Assembly: GCA_047637875.1 (NCBI GenBank)
Contig: JBLJBH010000038.1
Coordinates: forward strand, 1,969 to 65,968
Source of the DNA: Patescibacteria group bacterium
GTDB lineage: Bacteria; Patescibacteriota; Gracilibacteria; BD1-5; UBA6164
DNA length: 64,000 nt
Direction: 5' to 3'
The translations under genes were made by a program, and so were the position numbers. Positions within the stretch are counted from its first letter, which is position 1. Every line of letters begins with the position of its first letter. The notes below the pieces were generated by a model, which was not told where the DNA came from, searched no databases, and worked only from the letters and a program-made list of their open reading frames with translations. Shown here in pieces: positions 3,790-20,590 of the stretch.

Positions 3790-3984
3790 ATGAATACTAC
3801 TAAATTTTCTCATTGGAGAGATGAATTAAAAAAGAAGCCACAGGCAGAACCAGTTATTCTTGATGGAAATACTGGAAAGATTTTATCTGAAAAACAAATT
3901 AATGATGAAAAAATTGCATCTCTTCGTGCAGCATGAGCATCTGATTTTGAAACTATATTTAGGGAAATATTTCGTCATAGATAG
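3790..3984 (+). CDS. hypothetical small protein (64 aa)
   Basis: Open frame ATG 3790 to TAG 3982-3984 with one in-frame TGA. No recognisable motif. The stop lies inside a hairpin (ATATTTCGTC..GACGAAATAT). Confidence 0.4.
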
Positions 3985-5814
3985 ACGAAATATTATGCCA
4001 TTATAGCTCAGTTGGTAGAGCGTTCCCATGGTAAGGGAGAGGTCACGGGTTCAATTCCCGTTAATGGCACCATTTATGTTAAAAAAAAAATCTAATCCCT
4101 CGTTAAGCTCTAATATAACAGACTTACGAGGGGTTATTTTTATGTTCAAAAACAGAATTTCATTAATTTTTCTCTTTTGAACATAAGAAGCCTTTTTATA
4201 GATAGCAGAGGCATTTCTTAGTAAATCAGTGATAACTTCATATTTAAATAAAATATCATTATTTTTTTGATTTACATTGTTTACTTCTGAATTTAAATCA
4301 TTTAAAACTTTTTCTATTTTCTTTTTTTCTTCTTGATAAATCGTTTCTTCATTTTCATCTCTCATTTTTCAAAGATTATTTTTAATAAAATCTTTTAATT
4401 TGTTTTCCATTTTTCAAATTTGTATATTTAACAACCTTTTTTGCTCTTTTATATCAAAATCCCCCCTATCAATTCTTTCTTTGATAAGGATTAACAAATT
4501 TCAATAATCTTCCTCTGTTATTTTTATTTTTTTCAGTAATTTTAAGATTTCTTTTTCTATTTCTTCGTATGTAATACTTAATTTTACTTGATTACAAGCA
4601 TATTTTATTTGATGTGGTTGAACTATATCTCAATAATCCAAATTATTATTTCCTGTTTGTTGTTTTAATTCTTTAAGTTTAGGAACAAATCTTTTTTCGA
4701 AATTAGGTAAAGTACAATTAAAATTATACTTTCCATCTTCTGTAATAAGCATTTCATTATGTATCGCCATTATATCATCAATATGTGGTTTTACTTTATT
4801 TTGTGTTCTTACCAATTTTCATTCTCAAACTCCTCATATTTGATATATAAGTTGAGTAAATTCATCTTCTGTAATAAGAGGTTCATAATAATCATTTTTT
4901 TCTCTTAAATCTACTTCCTGTTTTCAATAGACAAAAACTCAATAATAAAAAGAGTCTCTCCAAACTTGATAAAGTTTCGTATCCATAGCTTTTCACTCTC
5001 TTCATTTATCATTTTTAAATTCCCTTTTAAATCAATTATCATTTAAATATTCGGCAATTCTTTCATCACTTTCATTTTTTAATTTCATCATAAAAGCTTC
5101 TCTCATAAGAGGAAAATTAACAGGATGTGGCATATGATATCCTGTTTCCTCATCTATATAATACCCCATTTTATAAATTCAAACTGCTTTTCACTTTGCG
5201 TGAGCAGAATAACTTCATCTTGCACTATCTTCACTTAACTTATCTGAATATTGTTTTGAGAATACAAACCACATTCATAGCATCATTTTTCCACTTGCAT
5301 TATTTTCAAAATGGAAATTTGTATATTTTAAATCAACTTTTCATTCATCTACCAAATTGATAATCTCTCATCATTCAACCATATTTCTTGCTTGTCTATC
5401 TGGTGAATATGATAAAATTCATTTAATTTTTCAGGTTTTAATAAGTGAAATAAGTTTTAACCATTTTTTTCTTATTCCTGGTGTTTTTCAAGACTTTTGT
5501 TCTTCTATGATAAATAAATTTTGAGTTTTTTCTCTTAAAACTTCATCTTCGATAGTTTCAGTACTGGTTTTCTTTTTTAGTCAAAGAAATTCGTTTTCTT
5601 TAAAATCAAAATGAGAAAAAGTTGAGTTTTTTTCCATTAATTTGATATTATTAACCAAAGCAAAATTATAACAAACTCTAATTTGGTCTTCGATTGATTG
5701 CGTTTGTTTTCCTGATGCCTCATCTGTTGATTTTCTGACATAAATTACATATTCTATTTCTTCTATATTTTCTATTTTTTTGATTTTAGTTCTCGATGTT
5801 TTTGATATAACCAT
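3883..5814 (-). CDS. large serine recombinase (integrase of the element)
   Basis: N-terminus YVRKSTDEASGKQTQSIEDQ (catalytic Ser motif), SPDRQARN, then a recombinase and coiled-coil region. Recognisable body is 4054-5814 (587 aa), with many in-frame TGA. Under code 25 the frame reads through TGA at 4051-4053 and across the tRNA to TAA 3883-3885. This 56-codon tail is probably an integration artefact. Confidence 0.8.
3997..4072 (+). tRNA. tRNA-Thr (anticodon GGU), CCA encoded
   Basis: Hand-folded cloverleaf. Acceptor GCCATTA/TAATGGC, D stem GCTC/GAGC, anticodon stem TTCCC/GGGAG with loop ATGGTAA, T arm ACGGG-TTCAATT-CCCGT, discriminator A plus CCA. 76 nt. Confidence 0.9.
4051..4077. repeat. 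attL: left copy of the direct repeat (core 4053-4068 AATTCCCGTTAATGGC)
   Basis: 16/16 identical to 20566-20581. Identity is about 22/27 over 4051-4077 versus 20564-20590. Covers the T-arm and acceptor 3' strand of tRNA-Thr. Confidence 0.65.
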
Positions 5815-5940
5815 AATAAATATAAATTAAATTATAAATTGCTCATCATTATACATATTTTCATATAAAAGTATAGATAATTTAAAAATTTTTGTGTGTT
5901 TAGAATATGTGACAACATTTATTTTTTAATTTTCTTAAAA

Positions 5941-6510
5941 ATGTGAAAAATTAATAAAAATACTTTTAATATAAGGCAAATATTATTTATCTCTAGTTTA
6001 AGAGAAAATATATTTAGAGAGCAACTTTTTGTAAACAGTGAAATTGATTTGATAATTTATTATGATAAAGATATAAATGACTTTAAATTCGGTAAATTTG
6101 AGGATATTAATGGAAAAAATATCGAAGTTATTTATACTTTACCGTGGTGATATTCTAGGATAAATGAAACCGTAGATTTTTCAAATATGTATATGGATAT
6201 TTATATAGATTTTTGCTCTAGTTCAAAAGATGAAATAAAGAAAATATTGTCAAAAGAAGTAAAATTTAGCAATGAAGACTTTGAAAAGTTTTATATCGAA
6301 TTATTAAAATTAAAAGAAAAAGATTACTGAGATGATTGGCTGATTTTTTATATTTTTATTTCAGATTTAAGTGAAAAAAGTAAGCTTTTTGATAACTACT
6401 TCGATATAGTTCGCTTTAAAGAATATATGAGGCAAAAAATTGAAAGCAACGAGCTAAAAGATATGGAAGATATTGTTTTAAATTTTAGATATGAAAATGT
6501 GTTTTCATAA
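5941..6510 (+). CDS. hypothetical protein (189 aa)
   Basis: Continuous frame ATG 5941 to TAA 6508-6510 with TGA=Gly. No motif recognised. Confidence 0.5.
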
Positions 6511-6522
6511 TATTTAAAACTG

Positions 6523-6550
6523 AAAAAGACCTAATTTCTAGGTCTTTTTT
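6523..6550. terminator. bidirectional hairpin terminator (end of the hsd operon and of 5941-6510)
   Basis: AGACCTA-ATTTC-TAGGTCT flanked by an A-run and a T-run. Confidence 0.75.
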
Positions 6551-6551
6551 G

Positions 6552-7976
6552 CTATTTTATAATCTTTCTCAATTCGCTAACCAAAACTTTTATCTCATCA
6601 TCATTTTTTTCTATATTTTCAATGATTTCGAGTGGACTTCTTAAATTTTCTTCTTTCGCTTTATTTGGATTTTTTGCTGATAAATCAAAGTCTTTTATAT
6701 CTTCAACTTTTACAATCCACGAATTTTCTCAAACAACTCTATTTTTTAGTAGATTTGGAATTTCTTTTATTTCATCGTAAGTGATAGGCTTGTTTTTTGT
6801 CAAAGTTCTTCCAAGATTTATTTCATAATACCAAATATCTTTTGTACTTCAATTTCTATCAAAAAATATTATGTTTGTTTTTACTCAGGCATAAGGTAAA
6901 AATACTCAGGCAGGAAGAGAAATAATACTATGTAAATTAAAATCTTCTAAAATCCATTTTTTAACATCTCAAAAAGCATTTCCTGTATTAAATAACACTC
7001 ATTCTGGAATTATAACTCAAACTTTTCATCAAAGTTTAACACTTTTAAGTATATGTTGTAAAAATAGTATTTCTGTTGCATTAGTTTTAATAGGAAAGTT
7101 TATTTGAACTTGTGATTTAATTATTCATCAAAATGGTGGATTTGCTAATACAACATCATATCTATCTTTTTCTTGAATATCTTTTATATTTTGTGCTAAT
7201 GTATCTGTTTTCTTTATATTTGGATTTGGAACTCAATGTAAAATCATATTCATCACTCACATAATGTATGCAAGTGGTGTTTTTTCATTTCAAAAAAAGC
7301 TATGTTTTTGTAAAAAATCTAGTTCTTTATCATTTTTTTCTTGTGCATTCATATGATTAAATGCTTCGATTAAAAATCAACAACTTCAAGTTGCAGGGTC
7401 ATAAACAGTTTGTCATATTTTAGGTTCTAAAACATCAACTACTATTTTAATAATACTTCTAGGAGTATAAAATTCTCAATTATTTCATCAAGCATTTCAC
7501 ATTTCTTTTAACAAATCTTCATATACTTGACTCAATTCAAATAAATCTTCTTGTTTTTGAAAACTTAAAGAATTAACTATATCAATAACTTCTCTTATAT
7601 TATTTCAATCTTCAATTCTATTATTAATAAAGAAAAATACTTCTCATATTTTATACTTTATTGAAGAAAAGTTTTCGGTTGAATTTCTAAAAGATTTTAA
7701 ATAAGGAAACAAAGAGTTATTAATAAAATCTTTTAAATCATCTCCATTAATATATCATTTTTGTAAATTAATCCAGTTAGCCCACCTATATTTTTCATCT
7801 AAAATATAAGTATAATTTTTTCAATCTAAAAATGCTTTATCATTTTCAGTAGTTTCAAAATCATCAAGGAATTTTAAAAATAATATCCAAGATATTTGTT
7901 CTGTATAGGACATTGCTCAAGATATTCCAGAGTCAGTACGAAGAACATCTTTAATTCTTGAAATTTGTTGTTTCAT
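6552..7976 (-). CDS. hsdM: type I restriction-modification system, DNA methyltransferase subunit M
   Basis: 474 aa. GEFYTPR, DPATGSCGFL and NPPFGG motifs. Confidence 0.93.
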
Positions 7977-7978
7977 AT

Positions 7979-8833
7979 TTATTTTTTAAAAGATAAAATA
8001 AAGTCATATATTTCTTCAAAATCAAACGAGAAATCATTATTCAAAACTGGTTTTAAGTCTGTCTCAACTTGTTTTTTTAGATTTTCAAAGTTTTCCTCTA
8101 GTGTATATTTATAATCAACTTCATTCAATTTTATTTCAAGTAATTTTTTAAACTCTTTATCTTCAAAATCAAAATTTCAAAATTGCTTTACATACCAAAT
8201 ATCGAAAAAATCTCTAATTGCTGGAACTCATCTTGTAAGACTTGCTCTTAATTTTTCAGCTATTGCTTCTTTTAAATCAATACAATTTATAAAATGAGCT
8301 CAAAAAATATTTTCTTCTAAAACAACATCTTTAAAAAATGATTTAATTTCTCCTGAAAAAGGTTCAATATATAATTTATTTTTAAGTGAAATATCTATTT
8401 TTATAGTTTGAGTTGAATTATCTATAATTGAGTTATATTCAAAAGTAAACATAGCAAGTTTATAACTATCATATTTTGTTCTTTCTTCTCTTAAATTTAT
8501 TCATAAGATTTTTAAATCTTCTATAAAATTATTTTCATATTCTTTAAGTAATGTTTTTCTAGCTCTTGCTCATAAATCAGTATTTAAAACAAAATCTAAA
8601 TCTTCTGAAAGTCTAAAATATGGAAAATATACTTTATTTAAGCAAGTTCATCATTTGAAAATTAAATCTGGATATTTTTCTCAAAATTTTACCAAAATAA
8701 TAGTCAGTAAAAAATCTTTTTCTACTTTATCTAAGGGAAAATCTTTATTTGATTTTTTTAAAATATTTAGATAATCTTCTTTTGATAAATTACTATATTC
8801 TTTTAAAAAATTATTAATTTTTTTAATATACAT
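7979..8833 (-). CDS. abiEii: nucleotidyltransferase AbiEii/AbiGii-family toxin
   Basis: 284 aa. FKGGTCLNKVYFPYFRLSEDLDF matches the hallmark of the DUF1814/AbiEii NTase family. Stop is 2 nt before the hsdM start. Verified codon by codon. Confidence 0.8.
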
Positions 8834-9413
8834 ACTTTTTTATTTTATTATTTACAGTAATTGAAGCATATTTTTTTGCTAATTTTTCTAATTTATTTTT
8901 ATCAACTCAATATGGAAGATTATTAAAATCTTTTCCTTCTTTTATCATCTGAATAAAAGCTCTTTCAATAGTCATAATTTTATATGGGTATCATTCAAAT
9001 TTTTCATTTTTTATACCATAAAAAAAACTTTCTCTTTGTTTTACGAATATAAATTTAGAATTTCAAATAATTTTTTTTCAAGATTTTTTAGTATTATAAA
9101 TAGTTTGCCATTCTGCTATTTGTTCAGTTAAACTATATCTATTATAAATTCATAATCATCCAAATACATATACATCATCTCACATATACAAATCTCAAAC
9201 TACAAAAGAATTTATAATTGCTTTTGTTTTATTGTTTATGTATATTTTTCACTTTTTTATAGGAGTTAAGAGTTCTAATTTGCATAAATCTTTAATAGAA
9301 TAGTTTGGAGCAAACTTATCTAATATTTTTTGTAAGTATCCACTTGTAATATATGGTTTTGAATATAATTCAAGTTTTTCTCTTATTATTGCTATTTTAT
9401 TTACTTGTTTCAT
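8823..9413 (-). CDS. abiEi: putative AbiEi-like antitoxin / wHTH protein
   Basis: 196 aa. Overlaps the abiEii start by 11 nt, as cognate pairs often do. The N-terminal region looks like a wHTH. The call rests mainly on position. Confidence 0.55.
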
Positions 9414-9477
9414 AAATATTTTGTGTGTAGTAAAGTGGTAATATTATATCTTTTCATACCACAAATGCAAATATTTT

Positions 9478-10674
9478 TTACTCTTTCACCAATCTTCATT
9501 CAAAAGCATCTTTTAATAAACTTTGTTTTAGTTCTTCTAATTCTTTTAATTGTAATTCATATTTTGTTTTTAATTCTTTGTTTTTTGCAAATACTTCATC
9601 TAAATATGAAACAATTTCTTTTTGTTTTTCTAGTGGTGGAAGTGGGATTTGAAAACTTCTTAAATATCATAATCAAACAAATTTTTGAGTTGCTCAATTT
9701 GCTTCATTTAACATCTTTTTGATAACTAAATCTGATAATAAATAATACTTTAAAAACTCCATTATAATAATTTCATTTTTTTTCTTGAATAATGCCACAT
9801 TTTTAATTGCAAAATTTGGTTCAAAATTTACAATTGTAGGATTTCATATTGTTCAAATCATAGCAAACAACAAATCTCATTTATCAACTTTACTTCTTTT
9901 ATTTATATTTATATAATCATTTTCACTTATTAGTTTTACATTTGTTAAATCTATTGAATTATCTATCAAATTTTTTGAGGTCACAAGAGGAAATCATTCT
10001 TTAAAAAACTTTGGAGAGTCGTGAGTTCAATCTCTAACATCAAATATTTCTCATAATTTCTTCATTTCATACTCTCACTCACTAAAAACTTTTTCTAAAA
10101 CACTTTTGTTTAATTCTTCAAGATTTTTGAGATTTTCTTTTGTGAGATTTATGTTTTTATCTATGTTTTCAAAAGCTGAGTCTAGTTTTTGAACTATGAG
10201 TTTTTGGGTTGAAAGTGGTGGAAGTGGGATTGGAATTTGTTCAACTTCTTTGATTTGCAAATTTGCTATTCAAGTTGTTTTCTTGGAAAATATTCTTACT
10301 GTTTTTTGGGTTTTATCTGAATTATAAAAATAATAAAAATAATTATAATCTATAAAATCTTTTAATGGTCTAAAACAAGATATAAATCATCATAATGTTG
10401 CTTTATATCATAGATTTTCTATTAAACAGCATTTTCATAATAATTCTAAACTATTTGCACTAGAAATAAGTAAATCTCAATCTTGTAAAAACTTTTCTTC
10501 ATTTTTTACTATTGATTTATCAATATAAATTATATCACTCTCATCTAATTTTGTTTGGATATTTTTAGTTCTAAAACAAGCTAATCAAGTTTTTACATCC
10601 AAAATATCAGATGGTTTATAAGTTACTCATCTTATAGTTTTTACTATTTCTCAAAGTTTTTTTGTTGGGTACAT
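9478..10674 (-). CDS. hsdS: type I restriction-modification system, specificity subunit S
   Basis: 398 aa. Two target-recognition halves, each followed by the conserved IPLPPL..Q..I...LD helix region. In frame with track ORF 10075-10260. Confidence 0.9.
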
Positions 10675-10681
10675 AATTATT

Positions 10682-11653
10682 TTATTTCATTGTAATTAAA
10701 AATTCATATAATTTAATTCAAGAGTCTATTCATTTTGCTCATAAATTTTTATCTATCTTATTTAAATTTTTATGAACTATATTATTTCTTATTCATCTTA
10801 AAATGTTTATATTGATTAAATCTTCTTTATATTTTAAATAATTATTTTTTTCTAAAATCAATGGTAAATATGTATTTAATAAAAGATTAAAGGTTAATTC
10901 TAGCTCTAAATCTTTTATTTTTTTATTACTTAATCATATTTCATTAAATTTATTTTTAATAAACTCTCAAAATAATATTTCCAAAATAATACTTGCTTCT
11001 AATAATGAAAATCTATCTCAGAATAGAACTCTTGACTTTAATTTAATTAATTTCAAAATATTTTCCTCTTCTAAAATATTCATATTAGTTACTTTTCGCA
11101 TCTTTTCCCACTTTTCTTTTGTTAACAATACATCATCAGAATAAATAGAATTTATAGTTTTTTTATCTTTTGATATTTTTTTTATCTCTTCAAATTTTAT
11201 TTTTCTAAAATCAATTCAATCATTTGAAATTTCTAATTTATATCAATCAATTAAAGAAAAACTATTATTATTTAAAAAACTTCAAATATATCAGGTTCTA
11301 AAATTTAAATATTCAAAGTTTCATATTCTATAAAATAATAATGAAATTTTTTTTATAACTTTTTCATAGATTAAATATATTTTTTTTCAAGTTTCAATAG
11401 TGATATTTTCACCTAATAGTTCATTATATAAATTATCATCTCAATTTATAGTTATAATCATAAATTGAGATGGTGATAAATCAATATAACCATTTACAGG
11501 TTTTTCTTCTTTTTTTATAAAATAATTGACTTCATAATTATCTAAATTTATTTTCAAAGGATTTTTTTCTAATTCATCCGACCAATATGAAGTTCAAAAA
11601 TCGCACAATCATTCAAGAGATGGAATATTTATTCTTAAATATATTTTTTTCAT
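10682..11653 (-). CDS. hypothetical protein with a C-terminal HEPN-like R-x4-H motif
   Basis: 323 aa, verified codon by codon. C-terminal helical region ends with LRGIRNNIVHKN (RNNIVH = Rx4H). Lies 7 nt upstream of hsdS. Confidence 0.55.
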
Positions 11654-11670
11654 TTTTTTATAAAAAATAA

Positions 11671-13608
11671 TTAATCTGTAATAAAGTAGTGTTTATCTTT
11701 TTTAAATAAGTATAAAAATATAATATCATTAATTTTTTTTCTAAAAATAAAATTTTTTAGATGAACTCATAAAATAATATATAAGATAAGAAAGAAAAAA
11801 GATATAAAATATAAAATTCATTCCCATAAATCCCAATTTTTTAATATAGGTGGTATAATGAAAATAACAAATAAACTACACAAAATAATAAAAATAATAA
11901 ATGAAATAACCCACGATAATATTCAAGCAATTTTTATATTTTTATTTTTTAACTTTTCCAATATATCTTTATTTTTTCTTTGTTTTTCTTCTTCTAATTT
12001 TTTTTCAATTTCAGATTTATGTCATTTTTTTACTTCCTCTAAAATCTCATTATGAATTGTAATTTCTAAATTCTTTTTAGATTTATCAATATTTGTAAAA
12101 ATAATATTTTTATCTATTTTTTCTCAAACTGAAATTGTTAAAAGTTCATTTTTTATTTCATTAGAAGAAATCAAGAGTGCAAAATCTTCATCTGTAATTT
12201 CTTTTTTTTCAACCATTTCATAACACAAAGCATAAAAGTTATTCCAAACATCTTTATTTATTAATCAATATGAAGTTAGTCATACAAAAACTGTTTCTAA
12301 TGGAATATCACTAGACCAATCAGGTTTTTTTAACCATAGGTAATTACTAAGATAATCTGGCAATATTATATTTGGTATTTTTTTGAAAAAACTTTTTTCA
12401 TTTATTTTACAATCAGCATTAAATAATCTTTTATCAGAGGTTAAAAAAATATATTTTGATTTTTCTAATAATCTTGGTGAAGAACTTCACCTTAAAAATT
12501 TAATAGACTCAATTGCATAAATATCGTGTTTTTTTGAATGGCGGGGTTTATGATTTATTTCTTCCTCATAATCATCTTCATTATAATCTAATTTACTAGT
12601 TTTTTGTTCATAAATCTCTACTCAAAATTTTTGAATAAGTATATTTTCAATTTTATATGTTAATTGTAATATATCTGATGTACCATATCATAAATTTTTG
12701 AAATTTTGGTAAATAGAGGCAACATTATATCATTTAAAATATTTATCTTTTTCAGTTTGGAAATTCTCTAAAACATTTATTGTCTCATCAATAGTAAATG
12801 TAAAAACTTTTACAGATATTCCTCTTTTTTGCATTAATTCTAATAATTCAAACGATGATTTTTCAAGTTCTTTTCAATGTCATCAAATTAATGAGAAAAT
12901 AATATTAGTATCTAAAAAAACTGTTAATGAATTTAAATTATACTCATTATTCACATCTTTAATTAAATTTTCTTTTGTAATTAAAGAACAAAGTAAGGCT
13001 CAATATACAATATTTTTAATTAGATTTTTAAATTCTAAATTATTATTAAGTTGATTTACAACAAATCTTGAAATTCAAACCTTTAAAACATTATCAACTC
13101 AATCAAGTTTTCAATTGATATAACTTTTACTAAAAGGAGAAAAAAATTCAAAAAAATTATAAAAATTATTATTTATAATATCTTGTAATGTTTTATATAT
13201 TATATCATCTTCATATCTAATATTATTATCTTTATATATATATAATCTAATAGACTCAAAAAGTCTTTCTAACTCAAAATATATATCCTTATTTAAATCA
13301 ATTGAGTCAATTTTCTCTTTTTTTCATTTCTCTGTTAATTGAATTATATCAGATTTTTCGTCATAAATAATTTTATTTTGTTTATCAAGTTTTTTTAATA
13401 TGTCTTTAATTGTGAAATTTGGTATATTTAAATAATACCTATTCTTTATATCATTTTGAATTTTTTTTAATTTAGTTCAATTAATTATATCAATAGAATT
13501 CATAATAAAAGGAAAAAAAGTTTCAAGATAACTTTTCTTTCATTCATACAGTGTTTGCATCATTGAATAAGTATAAAAATCTCTATATCAAATCTTACTA
13601 TTAGACAT
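11671..13608 (-). CDS. PIN-like domain protein with two C-terminal transmembrane helices
   Basis: 645 aa, verified codon by codon. TVFLDTNIIFSLIG (PIN strand 1 Asp) and YIFLTSDKRLF (PIN T-x-D). C-terminal hydrophobic segments ILSWVISFIIFIILCSLFVIFII and ILYFISFFFLILYIIL. Confidence 0.55.
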
Positions 13609-13637
13609 AAAATAAAATTAAAAATTAAACGTTTCTT

Positions 13638-15962
13638 CTATTTAACATATAAACTCTTTTGTAACTCATAATAAGCATTTTTTAACTCCTGCATTCACCC
13701 GAAAGTTTCTGCAATTTCCCTTGGTTGACCTTGGTTAAAGAGAGCAATTTTACTTGCTAGTCCATCTTTTCTAAATTCTAAAATTCCATTTTTTACATAA
13801 AGTCCCAACAAAAACTCTAAAAATTCTTTCGCTTTTAGACTTTGGTATTTTTCCACTGTTTCCTCTCAATACTGAGACCTTTCAGCCCTAAATTTAATAT
13901 CACTGTTAAAAGATATATGAGCCAAAATATCAAAAATATCAGACTTTTCAGCTTCAAACATCTTTTTTAAATCTTCCAGTTGCTCACTATCAAGTCAAAT
14001 ATTTGCTAAATTTTGAAGTAATTCTTCTCTGGTTTCAGGATTAGACCATAACATCCTGAGTTGATGTTCATCCTGGTAAATACTTGGTAAATCTCCAATA
14101 ATTCTTTTTAAAAAATCATTTGAATTTAAATGTTTCCCAGTCGTTGGGTCAAGATATCTCGTCTCAATATCAATAACTTTTACTTCTCTATTTGGTGCGA
14201 GTTTTACCACTAATCTTTCTTTTTTTTCAAAATCATTTTCTTTCGTATCTGTTGGGAAATCTTTTTTGGTATTTGGTCTGTATTCTTCTTTTTTTACTTC
14301 TACTTCATTAGATAAATCCTCTTCTGGTCATCCATCCCAAAGTTCATCACTAAAATCATTAGTAGCTCCAACAAAATCATAAATAGTGAAATAATCTTTT
14401 CCATCAAAAAGTCTTGTTCCTCTTCAAACAATTTGTTTGTACTCTACAATACTTCCAATATTTCTAACGAGTATAATATTTCTTACATTGAGTGCATCCA
14501 CTCAGGTAGTCAGCATTTGAGAGCTTGTTAAAATCACTGGAATATCTTTATCGTTGTCCTGAAATCTTTCGAGATATTTTCTTCATATTTCTCCTTCGTT
14601 ACTCGTCACACGAACACAATAATCTGGGTCTTTTACTTCTTTATACTTATTTATACTGTCTCTAATTCTCAGTGCGTGACCTTGGTCTACACAGAAAATA
14701 ATAGTTTTATCCATTTTGTTTATTTGTTGTAATATCGTTTGAGCAATTAAATCTGACCTTTCATCGATTATAATCTCTCTTTCCATATCTTTTGTGTAAT
14801 ACACTTCTTTTTTTATTTCTCACGAAACGACTTTATCTCAACTATTTAAAACTAATTCATCAATATTAAGTTTAATTCTTTTGATTTTAAACGGAGTCAG
14901 AAATCAGTCATCTATTCAAGTTTTTAGTGAATATTCATAAATTGGATTTCAAAAATACTTGTAAGTATCAACATTATCATTTCTTTTTGGTGTTGCCGTA
15001 AGTCCGATATGAACAGCAGAGTCAAAATATTTCAAAATCTCAGCCCAATTTCCGTCTTCTCTAGCTCATCATCTATGACATTCATCAATTATGATAGCAT
15101 CAAAAAAATCCCTATCATATCTATTGTAATAGGCTTCTAGTGTTTCACTAGGGTCATCTTCTGATACTCATCCTGCCAAAGCTTGATAAATAGCAAAGAA
15201 AATATTTGCGTTCGTTGGAACTTTTCATCATCTTTTTTTGATTTCAGTTCCGTTGATTTTGATGATATCTTTTTCCAAAGGATTAAAAGTATTCATTGCT
15301 TGGTCTACAAGGATATTTCTATCAGCCAAAAATAAAATTCTTGGTCTTCTCACTCATATACCATCTTTCGACCATCTTGCATTGAATAGTTTATAAACCG
15401 TTTGAAATGCAATAACGGTTTTACCAGTTCCAGTTGCAAGAGTGAGTAAAATCCTATTTTTTCAGTCTCAAATAGACTCCATTATCTTATTTATAGCAAT
15501 CTCTTGATAATATCTTGGTTTTCTTTCTGATAAATAAAATGGTTCTTGGAGTAAAGTTTCTTTTGTTTGATTGATTTCAGAAAATACTTTATTATAGAGT
15601 TCTTCTGGTGTTGGATAATTATCGATGTAATCACCTTTTCCAGTTTTTAGGTCAAATTCATAGGTTCTTTTTCAGTTTGATGAATATACAAATCTTAGAT
15701 TTAAAATACTCCCATATTCTTTTACTTGCTCTAAACCTTCTGTTGGTTCTAAACCTACCTTTTTAGCTTCAATAATCGCTAATTTTACTCATTTATAAGT
15801 CAAAACATAGTCAGCAAATTTTTGCTTTCCTCTTTTTCCTCAAAGCCCAATCCTTCCATCAGTAAAAGAATGTTCTCTGATGATATTGATATCATTCCAA
15901 CCATTATTTTTTAGTTGTGGGTCTATATAATTTGCTCTTGTATCGCTTTCTGAATATGACAT
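13638..15962 (-). CDS. hsdR: type I restriction-modification system, endonuclease subunit R
   Basis: 774 aa. LATGTGKT, IIIDECHRG, GLTATPKR and QIVGRGTR helicase motifs, plus an N-terminal nuclease region. In frame with track ORFs 13995-14210 and 14583-14804. Confidence 0.93.
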
Positions 15963-16046
15963 TTTTTATTAATTAAACAATATGAAATATATTTTGTTTA
16001 TTATAAGAAAAAAGTATTTTTTTCAAAATAAATTGATTTTTGGCAT

Positions 16047-16088
16047 AAAAAAGACCTCTAAGAATGTATCTCAGAGGTCTTTTTTTTA
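16047..16088. terminator. bidirectional hairpin terminator upstream of hsdR
   Basis: AAGACCTCT..AGAGGTCTT with an A-run on one side and a T7 run on the other. Confidence 0.7.
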
Positions 16089-16260
16089 CTTATTGGAGTT
16101 GGAAATATACCATCTTACCATATATTCGATGGTTTTACTTCTTTGAAGCCTAGAATAATATGGTCAATATATCTTTTTACTCTCACTATCAATCTTTCAC
16201 AATAAATTTTCGTCCACATTTAAACTAATCTTTTTCTTAATTCAAAACATAATATAAAAA

Positions 16261-16479
16261 TTATAAGGTAAAATTGTCATTTATTGAGATTTTCTCTCCG
16301 TTCCTTAATCAGGAAACTTTGTAATTTATCACAATTTTTCCATTTTGATTGAGTTTACTCACCAAATTGATATTAAAACTTCACAAGTAAAAATATTTAC
16401 TTATATCTATTAAAATCTTATTCACTTCCTCTTTAGTCAAGACTCTATTGGTTCTTGCAACATTATTCATATTTCCCAT
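16261..16479 (-). CDS. hypothetical small protein (72 aa)
   Basis: ATG (complement of 16477-16479) to TAA with two in-frame TGA. No motif recognised. Confidence 0.35.
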
Positions 16480-16597
16480 AATTATAAAAATTAAAAAATA
16501 AAAAGCTTTCGCAAAAAGAATACACACTTCCATTTTCGGTTCTTTTTTTATGATTTATCTATGTTTTTAATTCAAAAATACCAAATTAGGTATCAGA

Positions 16598-16716
16598 TTA
16601 GGTATAAATGTAGTATTACATTTATATTATTAAATATCGGTATAAAAATAGGTATTGAGTTAAATGATGAACTTAAGTGGTGACATCGGTGCAAATGTAG
16701 TATTACATTAATATTA
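16598..16716. repeat. two ~30-bp direct repeats with an identical 17-bp core AAATGTAGTATTACATT, plus GGTAT iterons
   Basis: Cores at 16606-16622 and 16693-16709 (87 bp apart). Each core is itself an inverted repeat, AATGTA-N4-TACATT. (A/C)GGTAT recurs four times between 16587 and 16655. Confidence 0.55.
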
Positions 16717-16860
16717 CAGTGATACTAATTTTGAAAAACTTTTGATTTTTTTTTAATATAAATTAAATTTAGTCACTTAAAAAAAGAAAATAAAAACGAA
16801 AAAAGTTTCTTTTTAATTTTTATTAAAATATATAAAAATTTAATATTTTCATTCTTCTCA

Positions 16861-16900
16861 AAAGACCTACTTAGAAAAATCTCAAAGTAGGTTTTTTTTT
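16861..16900 (+). terminator. orphan plus-strand hairpin with T9 run upstream of the rep gene
   Basis: ACCTACTT..AAGTAGGT followed by TTTTTTTTT. No plus-strand ORF precedes it. Confidence 0.6.
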
Positions 16901-17046
16901 GGTTATCAATTTTTTCATAAAACTACCAATAATAATAAAAAGCTCTATTTAATAAGTAAAACTAGGATTTTAAAAAATACGATATTCAGTGTGATACCAA
17001 ATATGTGTGTTGTTTCTTGTAGTTTATTTTTTAACCACATATAATT

Positions 17047-18804
17047 ATGAAAAACTGCAAGAAAGGTGATGCTACTTTAAGTATCGAAAATAATGCTAAC
17101 TACATTACTGAAAGAAGAATAAATCCTGAAGATTGTATATTATTTGTCAAAGATATGCAAACTGATGAATTTAGTTATATCGAGGAAAAATATATTACCT
17201 CTCAGATTGAGAATAATAATTTATATTTTCTTGTTAATTGATATTTGTTATGAAAAAGAAATGAGTCAAAATTGAGAAAAATATATGCTCTATGATTTGA
17301 TGTTGATACTTTAAAAGAATGAATAAGTGATAACGAATTATTCACTAGATTAGAAGAAATCGAAGAAGAATATTGATTAAGAGCTCATATAATCAATAAG
17401 ACTGGATGATGATATCATATTTATTATTTAATGGAAAAAACACCATATTTACCATTTAAAAAAGAATTTGATAAAATTTACGAAAGATTAATGAAGGATT
17501 TATCTGCTGATGAGGATTTTAGCTGGAAGGTAGGAATATTAAAAGTAGTTTGATGATATGATTTTAGAAGAAAAACTTGGATTATAAATATAAGAAATGA
17601 GTTTCATAATAATTATAAAATTACTGATTTTAATAAAATTACTGGAGATGAAGTATTTAAAAAATATGAAAAGATGAATTTTTCAGATGAATTTAGAAAA
17701 ATAGATGAGGAAGAGTTGAATTTGAAAAAAAGAATTAACAGTTATGTTTATAAAATAAATGATATTCCTTTTCCTATTATTTTAGAAAAATTAAATCAAA
17801 TATGATTTAAAATTACTATAATAAATAATAGAGTTCATATTGAAGGGAATGAATGACACGCAAAAGCATTATATTATCACGATAATACTGAAAGAGTTGT
17901 TGATTATGCGAGAAAAAATAGAATAAAAATATGAGAAACATCAAGAGGCTGAAATTATGGATTTTTATATTATATTTTTTCTATAGCAGACTCATTGAAA
18001 AACAAGGATTTGGAAGTTATTAAAGATAAAAAACTTATAAAAGATGAAATCAGGAAATTTGTTTGAAAATATTTTAATATCTACTATAGAAATCCAGATA
18101 ACTATATCAATACAAACAAGTTGATTTACAATGAATTTTTAAATGGAAAAGTAAGTTTTGATGAAATGGATAAAAGTTTTTTACTTGAAAATAATATCAT
18201 CAATAGTAATTATAAACTTTCTAGTATTTCAAAATTTGTATTATTAAATATTTTGAAGTGAAGCGAAATAGATATGAGCTGATATTTTAAGAATAAAACT
18301 ATTTATGAATTATTATCTTCCTCATCATTAAAGGAAAGTAATATAAAAAAACAAAATAAAAAATATAAATTAGTATTATTATGTTTATCAAAAATATATA
18401 AGGATATTTGCACTATCTCAAAAGATACTGAGAAAATAAGAGTTTTTTTGATTTCTGATTTAATTGAAGAAAATTATAGATTTTCATTCACTTTACTTAA
18501 AAATTACTTTAAACTTCAAAAATTTGAAAAATATATTTATAGAGGTATTTATATCTGATTTATTAATAACAAAAAACTAAATATTGAGAAACTAGATTTA
18601 TATTTTTACTTATTAAATCGTATTATTAATAAAACTGAAAAAATTAGCCTTGAGAGAGTATTAAAAGAGTTTTGATGACAAACATATCTAACAAATAAAA
18701 GTCTTTCTAAAAGTAATATTATTCGTGATATAAAGATATTTAAAAGCTTTCTAACGACTACTAATAGAAAGATAGATATTTGAAAAGATATGATTGTTTT
18801 TTAA
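17047..18804 (+). CDS. putative replication protein with an N-terminal AEP primase-polymerase-like domain
   Basis: 585 aa, verified codon by codon. ALGFDVD (D-x-D motif I) and KTGGGYHIYYL (G-x-G-x-H motif II). Confidence 0.6.
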
Positions 18805-18997
18805 AAAAAAGAAAGTGGAAATTAGTTTATATTTTTAGATAAAAAAGTAGAAAAATGTTTATATTATTTTACTTGATTATCCTCTTATTATAGACAGAAG
18901 TAAGAGAACTATTTATTCCAATATAAAAGAAAGAGGTTGATATATTTATAAATATCACTATTACTTATATAACATTTTATATTCTAATTAAAAAATT

Positions 18998-19459
18998 ATG
19001 ACAAAAATAATTGATATTATTGAAACAAATACATTTAAGGAGTTAAAAGAAAGAAAAATAAATTGAGAAGAATGAATTATATTTTATGATGACGAAAATA
19101 TATACTCTCCAGATGATGAATTAATTGAATGGCTAATAATTAATCCTGAAAATCCTGAACGCTATACATATCGTTATATATTAAAAAGCTCAATTCTCGG
19201 AGAAGAAATAGAAAAAGCTACTACTAAAAAATATTGAAAATATTGTAGCTGGAATAGTAACTTATATTCTGAAACGAAAGATAAAATTTACAAAGTATTT
19301 TATGATGATGAATTATATGAAAATGAAAAGGAAAATGAATATATAGAAATTATAAAAAATGCTAATAAAAAATTGGAAGATATAAAATATGCATATTCGT
19401 ATGAATGAAGTGAGACTTATAATATAGATTATTATTTTAAATTAAGTGATTTTTTATAA
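18998..19459 (+). CDS. hypothetical protein (153 aa)
   Basis: Continuous frame with TGA=Gly. No motif recognised. Confidence 0.55.
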
Positions 19460-19538
19460 TAAAAACTTAGCGACTCATAAATAAACAGTGTGTTAATAAA
19501 TGTAGACTTCTACATTTTATTTACTAACTTTTTATATT

Positions 19539-19997
19539 ATGAGTAAAAAAGACATTACTATTACTGAAATAACAGAAAATTACTTTTTACGTGAGAATAA
19601 AAAAATTAAGATTGTATTCAGCTATGACTACTTTCAAGACTTTATCCAAAGAAATTGACTTGAGGAAATTTTCCTAAAAAAACTTCATTTAGAATGATTT
19701 GACTTTGACATTGTAAAAATATCAAACCTAGATTTTAATCTTGATTTGGATAATACCGATTTTATTAATAAATTAAGAAATTATAAAGACCACTATATCT
19801 CAGAATGATTACTCTACTTGGGGAATGATAAGTCAAAAAGATATTGATTTTTCTTTTTTCCTGACTATCTAAAAAACTGAGAAATGAAAAATGATTTTTT
19901 AAAAATAAAAAGCACTGAAAATATTGATTTAACTGAATATGCAACTTTTAATTGATTGTATAACAGGGCTGGTGTTGTAATAGCATTAAAGATATAA
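19539..19997 (+). CDS. hypothetical protein (152 aa)
   Basis: Continuous frame with TGA=Gly. No motif recognised. Confidence 0.55.
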
Positions 19998-20010
19998 GAG
20001 TAATACGATA

Positions 20011-20051
20011 AAAAAGAGACTATTGGACTAAAATCCAGGTCTCTTTTTTTT
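20011..20051 (+). terminator. rho-independent terminator
   Basis: AAAAGAGAC..GTCTCTTTT followed by a T-run. Confidence 0.75.
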
Positions 20052-20128
20052 GTGCTTATTTTTTTAAAAACAATTTTAGCCCCAATTTGTGTGTATTCCT
20101 TTGTATTTTATTTTTTAACAATTTATAT

Positions 20129-20272
20129 ATGAAAAAAATACAAAGAGAACAAACATTAGCAACTACTAACAGCAATAAAGTTAGTGAAAATATACCTAAT
20201 AAAAAAGAGGTTAAAAAAGATTATAATAGACTGCTTGATTTAGTATTAGCATTAGATGAAATCAAAAAATAA
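20129..20272 (+). CDS. hypothetical small protein (47 aa)
   Basis: Internal ATG of track ORF 20087-20272. Weak. Confidence 0.3.
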   Translation: MKKIQREQTLATTNSNKVSENIPNKKEVKKDYNRLLDLVLALDEIKK

Positions 20273-20563
20273 TTATAAATACTTTTTAAGCAACTTTTCA
20301 TCATATTTTTTTCAAATAAAATCCATATTGAAATAAATAATACTTTTAAATAGAGAAAATTTAACTTTAGAAATTGCCAAAAAAAGTTGTTCAAAAGTTA
20401 CTCAAATCGATGCTCCATTTCTGAAATTTAGAAAAAAGTTATAGAAACATCTATAGCTTTTTTTGTGTAAAAGAAAAGGGAATTAAATGGAGGTTTTTTA
20501 TGAAATAAAAATAAAACTGCGATGAATAAGAACAATTTTAACGGATGACCGACCCGAAGGGCG

Positions 20564-20590
20564 TTAATTCCCGTTAATGGCTTCATTTTA
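20564..20590. repeat. attR: right copy of the tRNA-Thr 3'-end repeat (core 20566-20581)
   Basis: AATTCCCGTTAATGGC is identical to 4053-4068. Upstream AGGGCGTTAATT is a degenerate copy of the T arm. No tRNA 5' half is present. Confidence 0.65.

Follow-up and report, generated by a model that had tools for sequence, protein, structure and literature searches.

Restriction systems are the commonest form of bacterial defence, and PrrC is, to our knowledge, almost the sole fail-safe toxin wired to such a system whose working has been established. The type I hsd loci of Campylobacter jejuni reportedly carry rlo genes interleaved between hsdR, hsdS and hsdM. That toxins can be embedded in restriction-modification (R-M) loci is already established from PrrC, from RloC and from surveys of HEPN and PIN proteins: HEPN genes in R-M operons were catalogued in 2013 (PMC3710099) and PIN-like genes with a link to type I R-M in 2017 (Matelska et al. 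2017, PMC5499597), the latter survey observing none in type II contexts. Here, we analyse a seven-gene type I R-M operon within 64,000 nt of DNA from a Patescibacteria group bacterium (contig JBLJBH010000038.1; this whole stretch is referred to as the window, and coordinates are window positions). The hsd genes are interleaved with genes for a 645-residue PIN-like membrane protein (X645), a 323-residue HEPN protein (X323) and an AbiEi/AbiEii pair. We consider it reasonably probable, with better than even confidence, that an intact type I R-M system residing on a tRNA-Thr element has gained in its operon three separately evolving second-line toxin modules.

Under translation table 11 the region yields nothing but open reading frame (ORF) fragments of 105 aa or less. 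With TAA and TAG as the only stops it resolves into seven ORFs, all on the minus strand and running in one direction, and their coordinates are exactly those of an earlier description of this DNA made from its letters (the original prediction) once TGA is not read as a stop. The distances given there between successive genes from hsdR to hsdM, namely 29, 17, 7, 64, -11 (an overlap) and 2 nt, were likewise confirmed. The features of the operon are as follows, with E-values after the names of matching families:

16047-16088, bidirectional: strong terminator hairpin, from sequence (free energy, dG, -26 kcal/mol)
16000-16026, minus strand: candidate promoter for hsdR, TTGAAA-15 nt-TATAAT, which lies 37 nt upstream of the start codon ATG (consensus match by sequence and regular expression)
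13638-15962, minus strand: hsdR, type I restriction/translocase subunit, 774 aa (ResIII 9e-41, EcoEI_R_C 4e-20, HSDR_N 2e-7, PADLOC REase_I 8e-149)
11671-13608, minus strand: X645, 645 aa, with a predicted winged helix (~1-105), helical linker, PIN-like core (~225-440), coiled coil (~500-560) and transmembrane (TM) helices at 567-585 and 597-615
10682-11653, minus strand: X323, 323 aa, two predicted domains, N-terminal and beta-rich (~1-190) and C-terminal HEPN (~195-323)
9478-10674, minus strand: hsdS, specificity subunit with two target-recognition domains, 398 aa (Methylase_S 2.4e-31 in two stretches; full-length PADLOC Specificity_I 2e-57)
9435-9471, minus strand: predicted AbiE promoter and operator in the 64-nt hsdS-abiEi spacer (promoter scan 10/12; spacer sequence)
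8823-9413, minus strand: abiEi, antitoxin/repressor, 196 aa (PADLOC AbiEi 1.2e-10), overlapping abiEii by 11 nt
7979-8833, minus strand: abiEii, DUF1814 nucleotidyltransferase (NTase) toxin, 284 aa (PF08843 8e-28, PADLOC AbiEii 1e-37)
6552-7976, minus strand: hsdM, type I N6-adenine methyltransferase, 474 aa (N6_Mtase 2.7e-60, HsdM_N 2.4e-13, PADLOC MTase_I 1e-158)
6521-6551, bidirectional: terminator hairpin, 1 nt past the hsdM stop codon, from a terminator scan and sequence (dG -12 kcal/mol)

TGA is read as glycine in the host of this operon, since invariant catalytic glycines are TGA codons: those of NPPF-GG and DPAT-G-SC-G-F in HsdM, of K-GG in AbiEii and of QIV-G-RG (helicase motif VI) in HsdR. 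TGA accounts for 4-8% of in-frame codons, and in the X645 lineage it aligns with conserved glycines of standard-code homologues, as in LTEKG. The candidate phyla radiation (CPR)-type host proposed earlier is consistent with code 25 and with a G+C content (GC) of ~24%. The type I R-M system itself appears canonical and intact, as do AbiEi and AbiEii. HsdR, which also matches Helicase_C in the Pfam scan, displays the PD-(D/E)xK nuclease motif (D..IIEAKK), Walker A (TGTGKT), DECH and helicase motif VI (QIVGRGTR), and HsdM retains motif I (DPATGSCGF) and motif IV (NPPFGG). The outline first proposed for the locus, a one-strand type I R-M system interleaved with three predicted toxin modules and bracketed by two real bidirectional terminators, is upheld.

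X323 adjoins hsdS and carries the HEPN motif LRGIRNNIVH (R286, R289, N290 and H294). An exhaustive search recovered 73 relatives, mostly of about 320 aa; a word-indexed homologue search underestimated both inserted families, returning 2 matches for X323 and 16 for X645. In an alignment of 46 sequences E219, E225, N260, R286, R289, N290 and H294 are invariant, and R289-N290-x3-H294 is the HEPN Rx4H motif with an asparagine after the arginine. X323 itself scores below threshold for PF18735 (HEPN_RiboL-PSP) and has no usable match in Pfam, NCBIfam, PHROGs or PADLOC. PF18735 is matched at E<0.01 by 29 of the 46 family members, and the family consensus reaches 29.9 bits, where the gathering cut-off is 28.4. 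Judged by sequence and at the level of the family, X323 appears to fall within the HEPN RiboL-PSP clade, an active HEPN family distantly related to AbiD/AbiF (Anantharaman et al. 2013, PMC3710099). The invariant Rx4H motif and this family-level membership bear out the earlier designation of the 323-aa protein as a HEPN protein. In an AlphaFold2 (AF2) model built on the 95%-identical database entry P0017 (predicted local distance difference test, pLDDT, 84; predicted template modelling score, pTM, 0.80), the N-terminal domain is beta-rich and residues 179-322 are all-helical with a pLDDT of ~90. Foldseek comparison of the model with the PDB gave no significant match, the best relevant one being the HEPN ribonuclease (RNase) Csm6 at a probability of 0.25. 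No ATPase family was matched in Pfam, NCBIfam or PADLOC, and there is no Walker A motif in the sequence.

The gene for X323 seems to have belonged to this lineage of hsd operons for a long time, the other inserted genes varying from operon to operon. It stands 7 nt from hsdS in the window, 5 nt before hsdS in a sister operon of the same order (L004; X323 identity 75%) and 3 nt before it in another TGA-recoded contig (L096; X323 identity 45%), despite differing gene orders, the last of these operons reading hsdM-PemK-X323-hsdS-179 aa-hsdR. Sequence divergence follows that of the core subunits: identities between the window and L004 are 80% for HsdR, 75% for X323 and 73% for HsdM, and between the window and L096 they are 43.7%, 44.9% and 46.3%, respectively. 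Diverging equally with HsdR and HsdM, X323 therefore behaves as a stable operon member, unlike the other inserts. The slot between hsdR and X323 is filled in L004 by two unrelated genes, A275 and B343 (8156-9995). The A275 product (275 aa) has a weak HEPN match (PF05168, 5e-4) and that of B343 (343 aa) is a multi-TM protein with a weak 8xMP match (PF24838, 1e-4), such that the two look like a different nuclease-plus-membrane cassette at the position of X645. In L096 the gene between hsdM and that of the X323 homologue (1925-2311) encodes a PemK/MazF-type toxin, and the one between hsdS and hsdR (4553-5089) a 179-aa protein with two to three TM helices (u179).

X645 has no family match in Pfam, NCBIfam, PHROGs or PADLOC, our literature search found no paper naming its architecture, and the family is apparently undescribed. 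Across 59 full-length relatives four acidic residues are almost completely retained (D233 in 59, E275 in 58, D362 in 59 and D392 in 57), and N235 and T272 are near-invariant too. The motifs FLDTN, FTIDE, HD and FLTSD are displayed on a beta-alpha-beta core whose strand-helix order fits PIN in an AF2 model of P0004, a 31%-identical standard-code homologue (pLDDT 80). Foldseek gave matches to a phage 'PIN like domain' protein (probability 0.91) and to the PIN protein AF1683 (probability 0.66), and, for the N-terminal winged helix, to STIV F93, MarR and PadR (probability ~1.0). A profile search of the PDB with the X645 family returned winged-helix proteins only, with F93 on top and no PIN match. 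The top relevant Pfam matches of the family consensus, both sub-threshold, are PIN_3 (4.6e-4) and PIN (5e-3), and a sub-threshold PIN_3 match is seen in 2 of 16 individual members; hydropathy indicates the two-TM C-terminal tail in 15 of these 16. A PIN-like fold for the core is thus probable, not proven, and the earlier view of the 645-aa protein as PIN-like with two C-terminal TM helices is supported. There is no gene for a small VapB-like antitoxin: the hsdR-X645 gap is 29 nt, and most relatives either stand alone or have R-M genes beside them.

Relatives of X645 also lie inside type II restriction cassettes. A metagenome scan yielded 95 relatives, and the 80 loci kept formed 60 clusters at 85% identity, of which 50 had at least one neighbour of at least 100 aa. 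A methyltransferase lies no more than two genes from X645 in 9 of these 50 de-replicated loci. Among 128 neighbours, DNA methyltransferase is the commonest by far in raw counts (14 N6_N4_Mtase matches), and DpnII, BanI, TdeIII and DpnI endonucleases also occur; a PADLOC census of the same neighbours was swamped by redundant methyltransferase models. Individual arrangements include methyltransferase-X645-MwoI-like restriction endonuclease (REase) with overlaps of 4-8 nt (L003), X645-DpnII-like REase-methyltransferase-SIR2 (L006) and methyltransferase-X645-DpnII-like REase-methyltransferase (L008). The layout M1-X645-DpnII-like REase-M2 recurs in five loci (L016, L017, L018, L043 and L089) with junctions of -17 to +14 nt, and the X645 proteins of these five cassettes share a mutual identity of only 39-52%. 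Neither X645 nor X323 has a housekeeping homologue, and both are associated with R-M elsewhere. Scans of viral contigs found no relative of either family. Genes with a SIR2_2 domain flank X645 relatives in three unrelated contigs (L006, 5402-7189; L013, 2198-3217; L015, 2547-4493). SIR2 was considered as a general partner of X645 and rejected, the loci being few and the 80 metagenome loci giving only the L006 example again (as L018).

The third module, the AbiE pair, has its own control region. AbiEi has no match in Pfam or NCBIfam; AbiEii carries KGG-x15-DLD at residues 60-80, the hG[G/S]x15DhD signature of DUF1814 NTases (Dy et al. 2014, PMC3985639). The spacer ahead of abiEi contains a -35 box TTTGCA (9466-9471) and, at a spacing of 17 nt, a -10 box TATAAT (9443-9448), flanked by the arms GTGGTA (9457-9462) and TACCAC (9435-9440) of the predicted operator. 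The spacer of the sister locus L004 is laid out in the same way, but the inverted repeat that surrounds its -10 box is another one, of 11 nt. AbiEi is known to autoregulate abiE by binding inverted repeats in its promoter (PMC7319586, PMC3985639). The predicted promoter and operator in this spacer would give the block one internal promoter at the least, so that it is probably not one simple transcription unit. Since hsdM starts 2 nt past abiEii, the AbiE promoter probably feeds hsdM as well. The single operon of the original prediction stands as regards co-directional genes and tight spacing, and probably falls as regards one simple transcription unit. Its statement that the block has no internal hairpin terminators is essentially right. 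The sole candidate, a perfect 14-bp AT-rich inverted repeat inside the X323 ORF (11437-11472, minus strand; dG -15.9 kcal/mol), was rejected as an internal terminator because it is not conserved (dG only -5.7 kcal/mol in L004), and terminator-like sites in the region occur at chance frequency (2, versus 1.3 +/- 1.3 in shuffles). An Rfam scan of the locus gave nothing real, a sub-threshold His_leader match being the terminator hairpin.

On the favoured reading, X323 would be a HEPN ribonuclease with its own N-terminal domain, kept inactive by the Hsd complex in the manner of PrrC; a phage that disables restriction would cause its release from that complex, and RNA cleavage would follow. We infer this PrrC-like role, by analogy, from the position of the gene and the nuclease superfamily of its product. 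X645 would be a single-gene module without an antitoxin partner that moves between R-M cassettes, type I here and type II elsewhere, and may act as a membrane-tethered, nucleic-acid-guided nuclease, an independent abortive-infection (Abi) or defence effector. The AbiE genes would form a type IV toxin-antitoxin (TA)/Abi pair with an autoregulated promoter of its own, which probably helps to transcribe hsdM and may stabilise the element. Nuclease activity of X323 and X645 is predicted, as is any functional coupling of the inserted modules to restriction. Several points weigh against this picture. X323 does not have the N-terminal ABC-type NTPase of PrrC and RloC and has an unrelated beta-rich domain of ~190 aa in its stead, and its model carries tryptophan for glycine at 16 TGA sites. 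R-M dependence would not be a property of its whole family, because the more distant relatives (L009-L011, the only three loci that a GTDB scan gave), from Nitrospirota, Zixibacteria and an unclassified genome, all stand alone, without hsd genes beside them. For X645, the PIN_3 match lies under the Pfam cut-off (21.4 versus 27 bits), the structure is that of the distant homologue P0004, and Foldseek gives weak E-values (0.1-0.7) for the whole model. The X645 neighbourhood counts are raw, and ~80% of its loci have no R-M gene within two genes, a fraction made uncertain by the many short contigs. Co-transcription of the block would likewise follow only from spacing and the absence of terminators. 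A rival reading is pure hitch-hiking: the modules would be independent defence or addiction genes that gather in R-M operons and mobile elements by defence-island clustering, mechanistically unconnected with restriction and with incidental co-transcription. This would suit the variation of the X645 slot and TA cargo between sister operons, the solo state of most X645 and distant X323 relatives, the carriage of the block as cargo of an integrated element and AbiE's having its own promoter, and, as Matelska et al. 2017 (PMC5499597) note, closely related species do not keep comparable arrangements. We nevertheless think it somewhat unlikely: X323 stays 3-7 nt from hsdS and co-diverges with HsdR and HsdM to 44% identity through operon rearrangement, and X645 is fixed between M1 and REase, overlapping or near-abutting, in five cassettes whose X645 proteins have drifted as far apart as noted above.

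The original prediction had joined X645 and X323 into a conserved pair, one two-gene abortive-infection system coupled to R-M. The two do stand next to each other (17 nt apart) in the window and also in L012, and a protein with at least two TM helices lies within one or two genes of X323 in all four of the closest loci, directly upstream in three of them. These membrane proteins (X645 in the window, B343 in L004, u179 in L096 and the product of 271-810 in L097) are mutually non-homologous, however, and the idea that the HEPN protein has a membrane partner that varies is suggestive only at n=4. L004 and L096 carry X323 without X645, and the 80 X645 loci encode no X323 relative (0/80), no Hsd subunit and no AbiEii. 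The pair is consequently not supported, and we regard a two-gene system as very improbable. X645 might alternatively be an R-M accessory and not a toxin, either a membrane-tethered, winged-helix regulator resembling a C-protein or a methylation-sensitive extra restriction nuclease against which the linked methyltransferase gives self-protection. Its N-terminal winged helix, its fixed place between methyltransferase and REase with coupled junctions and the absence of an antitoxin gene beside it all speak for such a role, and PIN-like nucleases in the role of restriction modules have not yet been demonstrated (Matelska et al. 2017, PMC5499597). A function in regulation alone is hard to square with the near-invariant acidic active site, each R-M cassette that bears X645 already owns an REase, and most X645 relatives have no methyltransferase nearby; we judge this account quite improbable. 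A bolder reading, which we hold to be unlikely though less so than a plain accessory role, would make X645 a new class of R-M accessory effector: a winged-helix-guided, PIN-like membrane nuclease wired to type I, DpnII-like and MwoI-like type II systems (for example, as a guard set off by a block of restriction, or as a DNA/RNA nuclease at the entry site), with X323 as a PrrC-like type I guard from another HEPN clade that has a variable membrane partner.

The whole operon lies within a putative integrated element of ~16.5 kb (4053-20581) at a tRNA gene, delimited by these features:

3997-4072, plus strand: tRNA-Thr(GGU), found with ARAGORN; the final 16 nt of the tRNA body (4053-4068) are the left copy of an att-like repeat
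20566-20581, plus strand: right copy of the att-like repeat, AATTCCCGTTAATGGC, an exact match to 4053-4068
3883-5814, minus strand: large serine recombinase beside tRNA-Thr (Pfam Resolvase 1.3e-17, Recombinase 2.4e-10)

An exact-match search found two copies of the 16-nt repeat, where none is expected by chance. Since TGA is not a stop, the recombinase ORF continues at its 3' end antisense across tRNA-Thr, and the true C-terminus of the protein is uncertain. The L004 operon has a different chromosomal context, beside BRO-N, RhuM and ribosomal protein genes. The element also holds a gene for a 585-aa protein (17047-18804), with no Pfam match and with primase-polymerase-like motifs by eye, plus small ORFs. 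Two of these lie upstream of hsdR on the minus strand, encoding 64 aa (16086-16280) and 90 aa (16261-16533), neither with a Pfam match; the former has a ribbon-helix-helix look by eye and, on the minus strand, is ended by the hairpin at 16047-16088, which parts it from hsdR. From this terminator to the 585-aa gene extends ~1 kb without an ORF of at least 100 aa, containing direct repeats of 29 nt (16601-16629 and 16688-16716; 90% identical), each with the palindrome AATGTAGTATTACATT; these repeats may serve the element as iterons or operators. Directly upstream of the 585-aa gene, a segment of 58 nt (16997-17054) recurs ~3 kb on at 20081-20138 with 72% identity, perhaps through duplication of a promoter or leader. 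Within the operon, hsdR has the highest GC (0.31, against 0.17-0.24 for the other genes). TGA makes up a smaller share of its glycine codons (0.43) than in any other gene of the window, the other six operon genes having shares of 0.69-1.00. A mosaic origin of hsdR from this low TGA usage was considered and rejected: other window genes have shares of 0.46-0.51, the GGN codons are interspersed and the share tracks GC.

The locus thus offers two fresh candidates for restriction-linked fail-safe toxins, X323 and X645. The type II cassettes with X645 come from standard-code organisms, and they can therefore be tested in E. coli without recoding. The locus also indicates that TGA=Gly bacteria take their defence genes from a pool common to them and standard-code bacteria, and carry these genes on mobile elements.

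Set beside the systems already described, the operon resembles the prr locus (EcoprrI type Ic R-M plus PrrC) and RloC, where too the gene of a HEPN-superfamily RNase has its place inside a type I operon, between hsdS and hsdR, and is conserved together with the hsd genes. The proposed logic would also be alike, with the R-M complex keeping guard over a latent RNase. X323 is not a member of the PrrC family, because it has no NTPase domain, and its HEPN domain, unlike that of PrrC, appears to belong to the RiboL-PSP/AbiD-F-related clade. The C. jejuni hsd loci are said to have variable interleaved genes as well, the inserted families there differing from those of the window. With the RiboL-PSP-HEPN proteins (PF18735; PMC3710099) X323 has in common the Rx4H motif with Asn after Arg and a C-terminal domain that is all-helical in the AF2 model; it differs in having neither an L-PSP fusion nor a ParB operon, and Anantharaman et al. 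2013 (PMC3710099) do not describe an hsdS-linked HEPN subfamily from TGA-recoded bacteria. The PIN toxins found with type I R-M (Matelska et al. 2017, PMC5499597, section 17) likewise have a PIN-like gene apparently co-transcribed with Hsd and no obvious antitoxin; X645, unlike these, is a 645-aa multidomain membrane protein, not of VapC size, and occurs in type II cassettes too. The AbiE pair shares with the type IV TA/Abi system of Dy et al. 2014 (PMC3985639) its overlapping bicistronic genes, motifs I and II of the DUF1814 NTases and inverted repeats on either side of the promoter, and is unlike it in sitting between hsdS and hsdM, with hsdM 2 nt downstream. The original prediction could put no name to the arrangement of the PIN/TM and HEPN genes between hsdR and hsdS, yet arrangements of this general kind had already been catalogued in the two surveys. 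What is apparently new beside these known systems is one undescribed protein family, X645, and one hsd-linked HEPN subfamily, X323.

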